DNA of 64,000 nucleotides from Escherichia coli (lineage in GTDB: Bacteria > Pseudomonadota > Gammaproteobacteria > Enterobacterales > Enterobacteriaceae): NCBI RefSeq assembly GCF_011045215.1, contig NZ_CP049201.1; one strand, 5' to 3'. Positions 61,144 to 62,958 of the stretch are shown here, piece after piece. A program made the translations under genes and the position numbers. Position 1 is the stretch's first letter. Each line of letters starts with the position of its first letter. The notes under the pieces are model-generated. The model made no database searches. It was not told where the DNA came from and worked only from the letters and a program-made list of their open reading frames with translations.

Positions 61144-61392
61144 TCACTCATAATCTGACCGTGTTTTTTTACGGAAGTTGAGTCTGTCCATCAGATTAAA
61201 AAACATTACAATAAATGTAATTACCGCCCCCGTAATACACCCCCATATAATACTTCTCACCACCTGCCCGTCCGGAATTAAAAAATTCCCTGTCGTAATG
61301 CATATGATAAACGACACCATTCCACCGACAAGAAAATAAGCAGATACACAAAAAATACAGGAACATACTAAAAGCTTGATGAAAAAAATCAC
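61144..61392 (-). CDS. Hypothetical small membrane protein (82 aa, two predicted TM helices)
   Basis: ORF MIFFIKLLVCSCIFCVSAYFLVGGMVSFIICITTGNFLIPDGQVVRSIIWGCITGAVITFIVMFFNLMDRLNFRKKTRSDYE. Confidence 0.4.
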   Translation of the reverse strand: MIFFIKLLVCSCIFCVSAYFLVGGMVSFIICITTGNFLIPDGQVVRSIIWGCITGAVITFIVMFFNLMDRLNFRKKTRSDYE

Positions 61393-61612
61393 GACATATC
61401 TCCAACTGTTTCTTTGATTAAGATTTGTTTAATCTCCCCCGGAAATCAATGCCCTGTCTCCCGGAAATTAACAAAACCAAAATGCACGATTTTCCCCACC
61501 CCATGAATATCAGATGGTCAGCGTGATGTTTTCTCGCTCCGGAGATTAAGCGGTTTATCATTACCCTCCGGAAACGCCACACATTGTAAATGTACTGGTT
61601 GTCATCTGTGGG

Positions 61613-62248
61613 CTACTTATTACCAGTAAGCAGGGCCTCACGGTCTGCAGGACTTAACGCCAGATACCGCATGAGCCGGGACATACTCAGGCCCGTAACT
61701 TCGCAAATCTGTGGTCGTGTTATTGTTGGTAGCTTGTTCTGCGCATCAATAATTTCCAGAAGTTCTGATTTCTTCAGTGGTTTTTTTGTCCGCCGTACGT
61801 TGATAATCAGTCGCCCTTCAGCAATATCCCGGATGCGCTGCACTTCATCTTCGGACATTGAAAGATAATACCGGGCTGTCCCCCGATTCAGCCCGAGATA
61901 ACGGGCAATTTTTATCCTGTTCCAGCCCTTGTCCTCCAGTGCACGCATAATCTGATACAGCCGCCATCTACGCTGCGTGTCTGGTATATCCCGTCCGTTC
62001 GGACAGAAATGTTCAATAACCTCATCAACAGTAGCCATATCCCGCACTTCTTCATTAACGAGCGCCTGAACGTCATTCTCTGGCATGGCCAGCCAGCGTT
62101 TCATTGTTGACACAGATACGTCGAATTTTGCACATAAGTCTCCCGGTAATATCCGGGGATTATCGGCATACGCCTGACGCAGTGCCTGTATTACATGTCC
62201 TTCACCGGGTTCTTTGCAAGATGGAATACGCATAACATTCTCCGACAA
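61613..62248 (-). CDS. Hypothetical HTH-containing protein (211 aa)
   Basis: HTH-like segments (DVSVSTMKRWLAMPEND; RIKIARYLGLNRGTARYYL); third gene of a tightly packed three-gene cassette. Confidence 0.5.
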   Translation of the reverse strand: MSENVMRIPSCKEPGEGHVIQALRQAYADNPRILPGDLCAKFDVSVSTMKRWLAMPENDVQALVNEEVRDMATVDEVIEHFCPNGRDIPDTQRRWRLYQIMRALEDKGWNRIKIARYLGLNRGTARYYLSMSEDEVQRIRDIAEGRLIINVRRTKKPLKKSELLEIIDAQNKLPTITRPQICEVTGLSMSRLMRYLALSPADREALLTGNK

Positions 62249-62281
62249 TAAGAACAGTTCGCTTTTCCTGTTAAGAAAACG

Positions 62282-62524
62282 TTATTTAAGTCCCTGCCTT
62301 AAGTGTTTTGCTTCTTCTTCAAGAAGCGTCTGTAACTCCCGTTTCACATCAAGTCTCTCAAGTTTGAGTATCACGACTTTCATGGAATATCCTCCCCCAA
62401 AATCAGTTTCAAGTCTGGCTATCTGGCGTTCAAGCGAGCAATACTGACTGTATAATCTGTCAAAATGTTGGTGTCTGCCTTTCAGGGTGGACATTACATC
62501 ATGATACTTAAGGAACATATTCAT
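62282..62524 (-). CDS. Hypothetical small coiled-coil protein (80 aa)
   Basis: Start overlaps the stop of the upstream 145-aa ORF (4-bp overlap at 62521..62524), suggesting translational coupling. Confidence 0.4.
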   Translation of the reverse strand: MNMFLKYHDVMSTLKGRHQHFDRLYSQYCSLERQIARLETDFGGGYSMKVVILKLERLDVKRELQTLLEEEAKHLRQGLK

Positions 62525-62958
62525 TTCTCCATGGTCTTACATGAATTATTGTATGCCCCGTCCATTACAAAATTATTTATCAACTCACGTAAAACCACCT
62601 TTTGTTCATTATCCTGAGCATACTGAATCTGGCATTCAATTTCGTCTACAGTCAGTCTTATATCAGATTCATTAATTATTTCCGTTATTCGTTTTCTCAG
62701 ATATTCAGGCTGGCCTTTCGTGTTTCGTAAAACAAGACAGAATAACATGTCATAAAGGGCACAATGCCATGAATAACCATCATTGGTTAAAATAAGTCCC
62801 CAAACCTGCTCCGCAATAAGCTGCAGAATAAAGGATTCAGCCTGTTCTGTTTGTCCGGGAGCAACACGGTATAGCGGAGCAATCACAGCAAAAAACAGTT
62901 CATTTAACCAGGATTCCACCTCCTGCGTATTACCGTGAAGGAGATCGGTGAGTAACAT
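62521..62958 (-). CDS. Hypothetical protein (145 aa)
   Basis: First gene of the cassette; starts within ~50 bp of the end of the adjacent IS21-family element. Confidence 0.45.
   Translation of the reverse strand: MLLTDLLHGNTQEVESWLNELFFAVIAPLYRVAPGQTEQAESFILQLIAEQVWGLILTNDGYSWHCALYDMLFCLVLRNTKGQPEYLRKRITEIINESDIRLTVDEIECQIQYAQDNEQKVVLRELINNFVMDGAYNNSCKTMEK

Follow-up and report, generated by a model that had tools for sequence, protein, structure and literature searches.

The segment at positions 61107-62923 of the window (the whole stretch of 64,000 nucleotides of Escherichia coli DNA analyzed here) is probably a relic, bounded by insertion sequences (IS), of the cargo slot that follows a SpnT-like gene. 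This relic would have kept a helix-turn-helix (HTH) regulator of phage-plasmid ancestry, and it would hold no recognized toxin-antitoxin (TA) or defence system. The original prediction described a compact cassette of small genes at this place, and the four minus-strand open reading frames (ORFs) on which it was based are all present, at 62521-62958, 62282-62524, 61613-62248, and 61144-61392. These ORFs do not form a coherent coupled operon, and the cassette, as it was first described, owes part of its appearance to IS truncation. The segment matters little as it stands. Its genes are already in RefSeq as hypothetical, DUF465, and HTH proteins, and neither the IS elements nor the island framework is new; what can now be said is that the genes belong in a definite place, the variable slot that an IbrAB-PerC framework has downstream of its SpnT-like gene. 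The features of the region are as follows.

59411-61073, plus strand: ISEc12 IRL (34 nt, 59411-59444), then an IS3-family element
59462-60004 and 60208-61029: orfA and orfB of the IS3-family element, inside the ISEc12 ends
61074-61106, no strand assigned: ISEc12-type IRR terminus of 33 nt, left cassette boundary, exact complement of 62924-62956
61144-61392, minus strand: hydrophobic ORF of 82 aa, starting at GTG (preceded by GGAG at 8 nt) and with a basic tail at the C terminus
61435-61471, minus strand: two 15-nt direct repeats TT(A/G)ATTTCCGGG(A/G)GA, 22 bp apart start to start, candidate operator
61613-62233, minus strand: gene for a near-orphan of 206 aa with three HTH repeats, a predicted DNA-binding protein (from Pfam and internal repeats; a TTG start at 62248 gives 211 aa)
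62282-62524, minus strand: intact gene for an 80-aa DUF465 (YdcH/HP1242-like) helical-hairpin protein (from Pfam and PDB matches)
62521-62958, minus strand: chimeric 145-aa ORF, with IS21 IRR sequence at 62924-62958 and the 3' 61% of a SpnT-like gene at 62521-62923
62924-64000, minus strand: right-end part of ISEc12 (IS21 family), with its IRR terminus at 62924, extending beyond the window
63009-63758: istB of the right-hand ISEc12 (from the annotation)

The 1,817 nt of the segment are flanked exactly by a perfect 33-nt inverted repeat, with arms at 61074-61106 and 62924-62956. Each arm matches the IRR terminus of ISEc12, a member of the IS21 family, with 100% identity. On the right, the ISEc12 part was 99.8% identical over 1078 bp to a reference ISEc12 copy in locus L002. 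On the left, the ISEc12 IRL, the IS3-family element, and the IRR at 61074-61106 make up one unit of 1696 bp. The ISEc12 termini in the window (33 nt and 34 nt) match the reference copy at 100% and istB adjoins, which identifies these boundaries as those of IS21-family elements. The cassette had been described as wedged between an IS21 and an IS3 element. An IS3-family element does lie on the left, but since it is nested between ISEc12 IRL and IRR, the cassette adjoins IS21-type termini on either side.

We compared the target sites of these elements. The L002 reference copy of ISEc12 has a 5-bp target duplication (ACAAC), and the 1696-bp unit has target duplications of 5 to 6 bp in two other E. 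coli genomes (CCTTAA and ACAAA). The left unit in the window has none, its flanks being CCAAA and AATAT; the right-hand ISEc12 copy has its far end outside the window. Because the duplication is missing here and present for the same unit elsewhere, an IS-mediated deletion or recombination is suggested. A copy of ISEc12 inserted in the SpnT-like gene, with the loss of its first 86 codons. At the second IS21-ended unit, 1.8 kb downstream, an IS-mediated deletion or recombination may have removed a type I R-M system. Left behind are the dead SpnT-like fragment, the intact DUF465 gene, the intact gene for the 206-aa three-HTH protein, and possibly the 82-aa ORF with its two TM segments. The IRR of IS21 has an outward-facing -35 element, and the truncated gene, the DUF465 gene, and the HTH gene could be transcribed by read-through out of the IS.

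The truncation is seen most directly in the 145-aa ORF. ISEc12 extends from 62924 onward and therefore supplies this ORF with its ATG (62958) and first 11 codons; no Shine-Dalgarno sequence was detected for the ORF. BLASTP and tblastn revealed that its residues 12 to 145 correspond, with 96% identity, to residues 87 to 222 of a 222-aa protein of E. coli strain C5. In an alignment of the SpnT-like family, many invariant residues fall in the N-terminal 86 aa, which the window copy lacks; W11, H24, H47, and N56-T60 are among those missing. A complete member of the family would be expected to align over approximately 214 aa, including the conserved N-terminal half; the window ORF is a truncated member. 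It belongs to the same family as the SpnT-like protein of IbrA-IbrB-PerC islands (for example, those of the O157 OI-43/48 type), from which it differs in the missing N-terminal 86 residues and in a start that lies inside an IS end. The 145-aa ORF is not a gene of its own but a SpnT-like gene that has lost its 5' part and gained, by chance, an in-frame start from the IS end to which it is joined.

The name SpnT is used here after a UniProt label and a published study (PMC11064533): the AFDB match to the SpnT-like protein, at 76% identity, carries the UniProt name "SpnT protein." The 222/214-aa family is restricted to Escherichia and one Serratia sequence. Its AF2 model is all-alpha (pLDDT 72) and matched only its own family in a fold search of AFDB50, and the protein had no Pfam match. 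Overexpression of spnT in E. coli is reported to result in elongated cells and nucleoids, and an E. coli deletion to alter antibiotic tolerance in clumps (PMC11064533). Among the loci examined, only strain C5 carries an intact SpnT-like gene. In all 10 draft-genome loci that were read, the gene is degraded, having lost its N-terminal 32 codons and being joined to a PerC gene cut to 84 residues; in 5 of the 10, it is additionally frameshifted. The SpnT-like gene is dispensable for whatever lies downstream. The original proposal of three translationally coupled genes is not supported, as the first of them is an IS-truncated pseudogene that is degraded in these 10 loci as well.

The start/stop overlap of 4 bp on which that proposal leaned is real (ATGA at 62521-62524) but specific to the window. 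All eight related loci compared carry an extra AAATGA, which results in a 2-nt gap in place of the overlap. A tidy-looking coupled operon can thus arise from an IS truncation and a 6-bp deletion. The HTH protein had been given as 211 aa, which is what initiation at the TTG codon would yield, but the most likely start is ATG 62233, with a 206-aa product. A GGAG motif lies 6 nt upstream of this codon, and PGAP annotates the protein as 206 aa in strain C5.

The whole segment was found in 1 of 5,426 complete E. coli genomes, that of strain C5 (from a cow), with 98% identity. An index of the assembly collection lists the exact HTH protein in 111 blocks, and the native context given here is that of the 10 E. 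coli draft-genome loci read from these. All 10 display one order: T6SS remnants, NERD helicase, PerC, SpnT-like gene, DUF465, HTH gene, 82-aa ORF, and type I hsdR-M-S, with an ORF-free spacer of approximately 0.9 kb before the R-M genes. In strain C5, the core order is unchanged, but the place of the NERD helicase upstream of PerC is taken by ibrA/ibrB remnants and an AAA ATPase. The window retains the 1.8-kb segment only; PerC, the NERD helicase, and the R-M genes of the native locus are absent from it.

In E. coli loci, the SpnT-like gene normally comes after PerC and usually after IbrA-IbrB, and this framework of IbrA, IbrB, PerC, and SpnT-like gene is also found in the O157 OI-43/48-type island. 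The cargo on its 3' side includes a TerB-N/ATPase/helicase set, a radical SAM protein with DUF6375 and a 1,347-aa protein, capsule genes, another type I R-M system in Serratia, and IS remnants with a GTPase and Cah in the O157 island. Since what comes after the SpnT-like gene varies, the framework ends with this gene, and a slot for variable cargo follows. Both flanks of this slot are collinear between the window and the O157-type island, and the tRNA-Ser(GGA) gene at 40107-40194 likely marks the island attachment site. The description of the setting as a mobile-element-rich island was correct; in the native loci, the genes lie between the NERD helicase and the type I R-M system, in a slot that is variable and rich in defence genes. 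An Rfam scan of 58 to 64 kb found nothing, and a scan for promoters and terminators gave counts near the shuffle expectation.

The R-M genes of the native locus suggest another explanation, in which the trio of DUF465, HTH gene, and 82-aa ORF is a controller-like regulatory accessory of the adjoining type I system, orphaned by the IS-mediated loss of hsdRMS. The arrangement is indeed identical in the 10 native loci and C5, with hsdR (1137 aa), hsdM, and hsdS approximately 0.9 kb downstream on the same strand. However, the same hsdR is found without the trio in other E. coli (H76 and H77), where the homology runs from a repeat of about 70 bp in the spacer. Moreover, the spacer has no ORFs, the window strain retains the trio without R-M, and controller proteins are a feature of type II, not type I, R-M systems. 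Because type I R-M occurs elsewhere without the trio, we regard an accessory role as very improbable. That the trio is part of the type I system itself was ruled out by the finding of the hsdR gene without it.

The 80-aa protein is a member of the DUF465 family. It matched the Pfam model (PF04325; E = 2.6e-4) over positions 1 to 48 of 48, and it matched a solved member of the family, Helicobacter pylori HP1242 (PDB 1ZHC; E = 9e-4), over residues 3 to 71. It resembles DUF465, YdcH, and HP1242 in length and aligns over the full length of HP1242 and the Pfam model, and it retains conserved family residues. However, it is not a YdcH equivalog by NCBIfam PRK11415, scoring 46.7 bits against a cut-off of 91, and is about 36% identical to chromosomal ydcH. 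The genes of the cassette had been called uncharacterized; this one can be assigned to a family, although DUF465 itself is without known function, and a search of the literature on DUF465, YdcH, and IbrA/IbrB found no functional information. We considered and rejected a conserved pairing of DUF465 with the HTH gene. The sole support for it was a remnant on two IncF plasmids, where an 86%-identical DUF465 copy is followed by just the first 26 codons of the HTH gene, and a 48%-identical DUF465 copy elsewhere has no HTH neighbor. Because homologues occur without an intact HTH gene, DUF465 would be a small gene in its own right, with no obligatory link to the HTH protein.

The three-HTH protein is what gives the segment some value, being constrained, almost free of relatives among billions of proteins, and located in a defence-rich slot. 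It matched the Pfam family HTH_8 (E = 2e-5), more weakly HTH_23, and the phage family PHROG_836, "late transcriptional activator" (E = 1.9e-6). Analysis of internal repeats revealed three units in which an (A/S)(M/L)(S/P)xxDxxxL helix comes after the HTH (z scores of 6.9 and 4.2 against shuffles). The AF2 model is all-alpha, with a pLDDT of 74 overall, rising to about 90 in the middle domain. Its top PDB folds, none of them significant (best E = 0.17), were tandem-HTH DNA-binding domains, including the Pax paired domain and the SETMAR/Mos1 DNA-binding domain. The protein shares repeated three-helix HTH units with tandem-HTH DNA-binding proteins (resolvase/Fis-type HTH_7, HTH_8, and HTH_23; paired-domain and mariner-type bipartite HTH proteins; phage Mor-like late activators). 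It differs from these in having three repeats instead of two and no catalytic, dimerization, or sensor domain.

Homologues of this protein formed 2 clusters among 5.8e9 proteins. Among 1.84e9 representatives, seven matches were obtained at E ≤ 1e-3, and only the protein itself fell below 1e-10. Its distant relatives are uncharacterized proteins with an added N-terminal coiled coil, encoded on an E. coli replicon of about 60 kb, where they adjoin ParB, a 3'-5' exonuclease, and, in locus L023, a family-A DNA polymerase. From this gene content, we read the replicon as a phage-plasmid. A tblastn search with the HTH protein gave no match in phage genomes and one distant phage-plasmid match among plasmids. 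The idea that the coiled coil of these relatives is a fused DUF465 (a Rosetta-stone argument) was discarded, as hhalign gave it a probability of 4.8%. The case named at the outset as fatal to the cassette, in which this protein proves to be a degraded transposase or a known phage regulator, did not arise: the ORF is intact, its scores against transposases (IS21, 17 bits where the cut-off is 160; IS481, 14 bits where it is 224) come from the HTH part only, and it is no named phage regulator. We infer its function from fold class alone: the protein may be a sequence-specific DNA-binding regulator, one probably of phage-plasmid ancestry.

Selection was measured on nine closely related haplotypes with 8 to 17 substitutions per gene. 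On these numbers, the HTH gene has 7 synonymous and 3 nonsynonymous changes (pN/pS of about 0.14; P = 0.003), and it is the only gene in the segment under clear purifying selection. By the same measure, the DUF465 gene gave a pN/pS of 0.76, on 8 changes. This difference bears on the explanation that the whole segment is decaying hitch-hiker DNA without current function, in which case the constraint on the HTH gene would be historical. Such decay would agree with the DUF465 ratio, with the truncated or frameshifted SpnT-like gene in the window and the 10 draft-genome loci, with the IncF plasmids that keep DUF465 and a stub of the HTH gene, and with the single occurrence of the segment among the complete genomes. 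However, none of the loci examined has a broken HTH ORF, the synonymous excess in this ORF is significant, and the DUF465 protein has kept its family residues. We therefore consider complete decay rather unlikely and favor a relic that holds a regulator.

The last of the four ORFs, described in the original prediction as an 82-aa membrane protein with two helices, has at least 2 TM segments by hydropathy and a plausible Shine-Dalgarno sequence, but as a real gene it is weakly supported. Some gene callers call it in L003, L006, L008, and L012, whereas PGAP skips the C5 copy. It has just one homologous cluster, and its 5 synonymous and 5 nonsynonymous changes indicate marginal constraint (P = 0.05). 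In one strain, a 1-bp deletion disrupts it while the HTH gene is kept. The 220-bp gap that separates it from the HTH gene includes the most variable stretch of the segment.

The repeat search for operators had one result, the pair of 15-nt direct repeats, which precedes the 82-aa ORF by 43 to 80 nt. In L003, a further copy, differing at one position, is located upstream of PerC. We speculate that the HTH protein controls its own small neighborhood, possibly through these paired repeats. Against this regulatory role, the pair could have arisen by chance, and its G-run differs between strains; we take it as a candidate operator, useful only as a lead. Two observations also stand against the relic itself: the native neighborhood is rich in defence genes, and the marginal constraint on the 82-aa ORF is unexpected for a pure relic.

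Compact operons of this kind had been called typical of TA, phage-defence, or abortive-infection systems. The segment is like type II TA and small abortive-infection cassettes in its compact same-strand small genes, with an HTH protein among them, and in its location in mobile DNA. It differs from them in that its first "gene" is a fragment, no recognized toxin family is present, DUF465 occurs alone elsewhere, and the set is not conserved past copies that are 97 to 98% identical. No toxin, antitoxin, Abi, or defence family was found in PADLOC, Pfam, NCBIfam, PHROGs, or PDB/AFDB folds; the family searches with all ORFs yielded generic HTH and DUF465 matches only. The defence-predictor check that had been proposed was run with PADLOC, and no system model matched above noise: with PADLOC-DB v2, the matches were mad1 over 16 residues of the HTH (E = 4e-5), pAgo (E = 0.004), and PDC-M48A (E = 0.03) for the truncated SpnT-like ORF, and there was no match for the DUF465 protein or the 82-aa ORF. 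As to type II TA systems specifically, no ORF had a toxin family in Pfam, NCBIfam, PHROGs, or PDB. Nor was a conserved pair seen, with 2 clusters for the HTH protein, 1 for the 82-aa ORF, and DUF465 found without the HTH gene. The set appears not to be an autonomous TA or defence system of any recognized kind.

A neighborhood comparison had also been suggested, and DUF465, HTH gene, and 82-aa ORF do stay together in the 10 E. coli loci, but all are copies 97 to 98% identical to the window. As the co-occurrence is limited to such copies, it reflects shared descent, not selection for the set, and it carries no weight for functional linkage. This bears on the explanation that the trio is an autonomous small defence, superinfection-exclusion, or TA-like module, in which the HTH protein would play the part of regulator or antitoxin, and the membrane effector would be the two-TM protein. 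Phage Imm and Sie-type proteins have a size and topology comparable to those of the 82-aa protein. The defence-rich position of the trio in all 10 native loci, the purifying selection on the HTH gene and its marginal counterpart in the 82-aa ORF, the TM segments and Shine-Dalgarno sequence of the latter, and a weak PHROG match to a "moron" membrane protein (E = 0.063) are consistent with such a module. The strain that lost the 82-aa ORF by frameshift and kept the HTH gene would be permitted by toxin/antitoxin polarity. On the other hand, PADLOC yielded no real match, neither a toxin nor an Abi family appeared in Pfam, NCBIfam, or PDB, all known copies of the trio are near-identical, the 220-bp gap between HTH gene and 82-aa ORF includes the most variable stretch of the segment, and PGAP leaves this ORF uncalled in C5. 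Together, these results make an autonomous module quite unlikely, and the defence-rich neighborhood is the only argument for a defence role. In a narrower form, the trio would be an undescribed, narrowly distributed defence or superinfection-exclusion module in which the HTH protein gates the membrane effector. We give this form only a slim chance; if true, a working trio would be a very small, lineage-restricted addition to the known systems.

Apart from the segment, the unit on its left side deserves a comment. The IS3-family element moves within a 67-bp mini-IS21 shell, which makes the unit a neat example of one IS mobilized via the ends of another.

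Several features were noted in the window:

40107-40194, tRNA-Ser(GGA) gene
53000-58500, low-GC stretch (GC 0.28-0.40), between the GTPase gene and the IS cluster
57834-58475, 213-aa ORF with a C-terminus that is AraC-like, as judged by eye alone
59411-61106, 1,696-bp unit composed of the ISEc12 IRL (34 nt), a complete IS3-family element, and the ISEc12 IRR (33 nt)
61435-61471, direct 15-nt repeats TT(A/G)ATTTCCGGG(A/G)GA, 22 bp apart, upstream of the 82-aa ORF

The tRNA-Ser(GGA) gene lies at what is likely the left boundary of an island that encodes Ag43/Cah and a YeeP-like GTPase and also has DUF945-type genes. 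Its gene order is collinear with that of the O157:H7 OI-43/48-type island (Cah, GTPase, SpnT-like, PerC, IbrB, and IbrA). The closest match to the low-GC stretch was found in C5, a complete E. coli genome that also carries the cassette segment, where the matching region is annotated as encoding an IS481 transposase, an EAL-domain protein, and a PapB/FocB-family regulator.

The 1,696-bp unit lies immediately left of the cassette. The same unit, with identical ends, was found in other genomes, where target duplications flank it in strain RM8082 (CCTTAA) and in AR_0372 (ACAAA). On the basis of these duplications, the unit appears to move as a nonautonomous mini-IS21 that carries the IS3-family IS as cargo, presumably mobilized in trans by the IS21 transposition proteins IstAB. 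No target duplication was found at the flanks of the unit in the window.

We compared the cassette with its native counterparts. In each of the 10 draft-genome loci read that carry it (L003 to L012, at about 6894-7710), PerC is cut to 84 residues and joined to an SpnT-like gene from which the first 32 codons are missing. Half of them (5/10) contain a further 1-bp frameshift near the 3' end of this gene; in C5, the SpnT-like gene is intact. The ATGA stop/start overlap within the cassette is also a local feature. All eight related loci have a 2-nt gap at the corresponding position, and the overlap in the window exists because a 6-bp deletion at 62521-62530, relative to the same eight loci, removed one copy of a tandem AAATGA.

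Two IncF plasmids carry a DUF465 gene with 86% identity (L013, 5952-6401; L014, 4874-5323). After it come the first 26 codons of the HTH gene, and beyond these the DNA is unrelated, including in L014 a RelE/ParE gene on the opposite strand. The IncF copy is a second remnant of the DUF465-HTH pair, truncated independently. The HTH protein has distant relatives only on a 61-kb E. coli contig (L023) and plasmid pSTEC648_2 (L025; CP061838), where multi-HTH genes lie side by side in pairs. Their neighbors encode ParB, an exonuclease, and DUF29 proteins; L023 also has a family-A DNA polymerase gene there. We read this replicon of roughly 60 kb as a putative phage-plasmid.

Two short sequences were located in the native locus L003:

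6687-6701, one-mismatch copy of the 15-nt repeat, about 200 bp upstream of PerC
9487-9560, sequence of roughly 70 bp within the spacer between the 82-aa ORF and hsdR

Copies of this roughly 70-bp sequence with 90 to 95% identity are spread across thousands of E. coli genomes, in some cases within IS66 tnpC annotations. It is at this sequence that homology starts with copies of the type I restriction-modification genes lacking the trio of DUF465, HTH, and 82-aa ORFs. The 15-nt repeats differ from strain to strain in the length of their G run.
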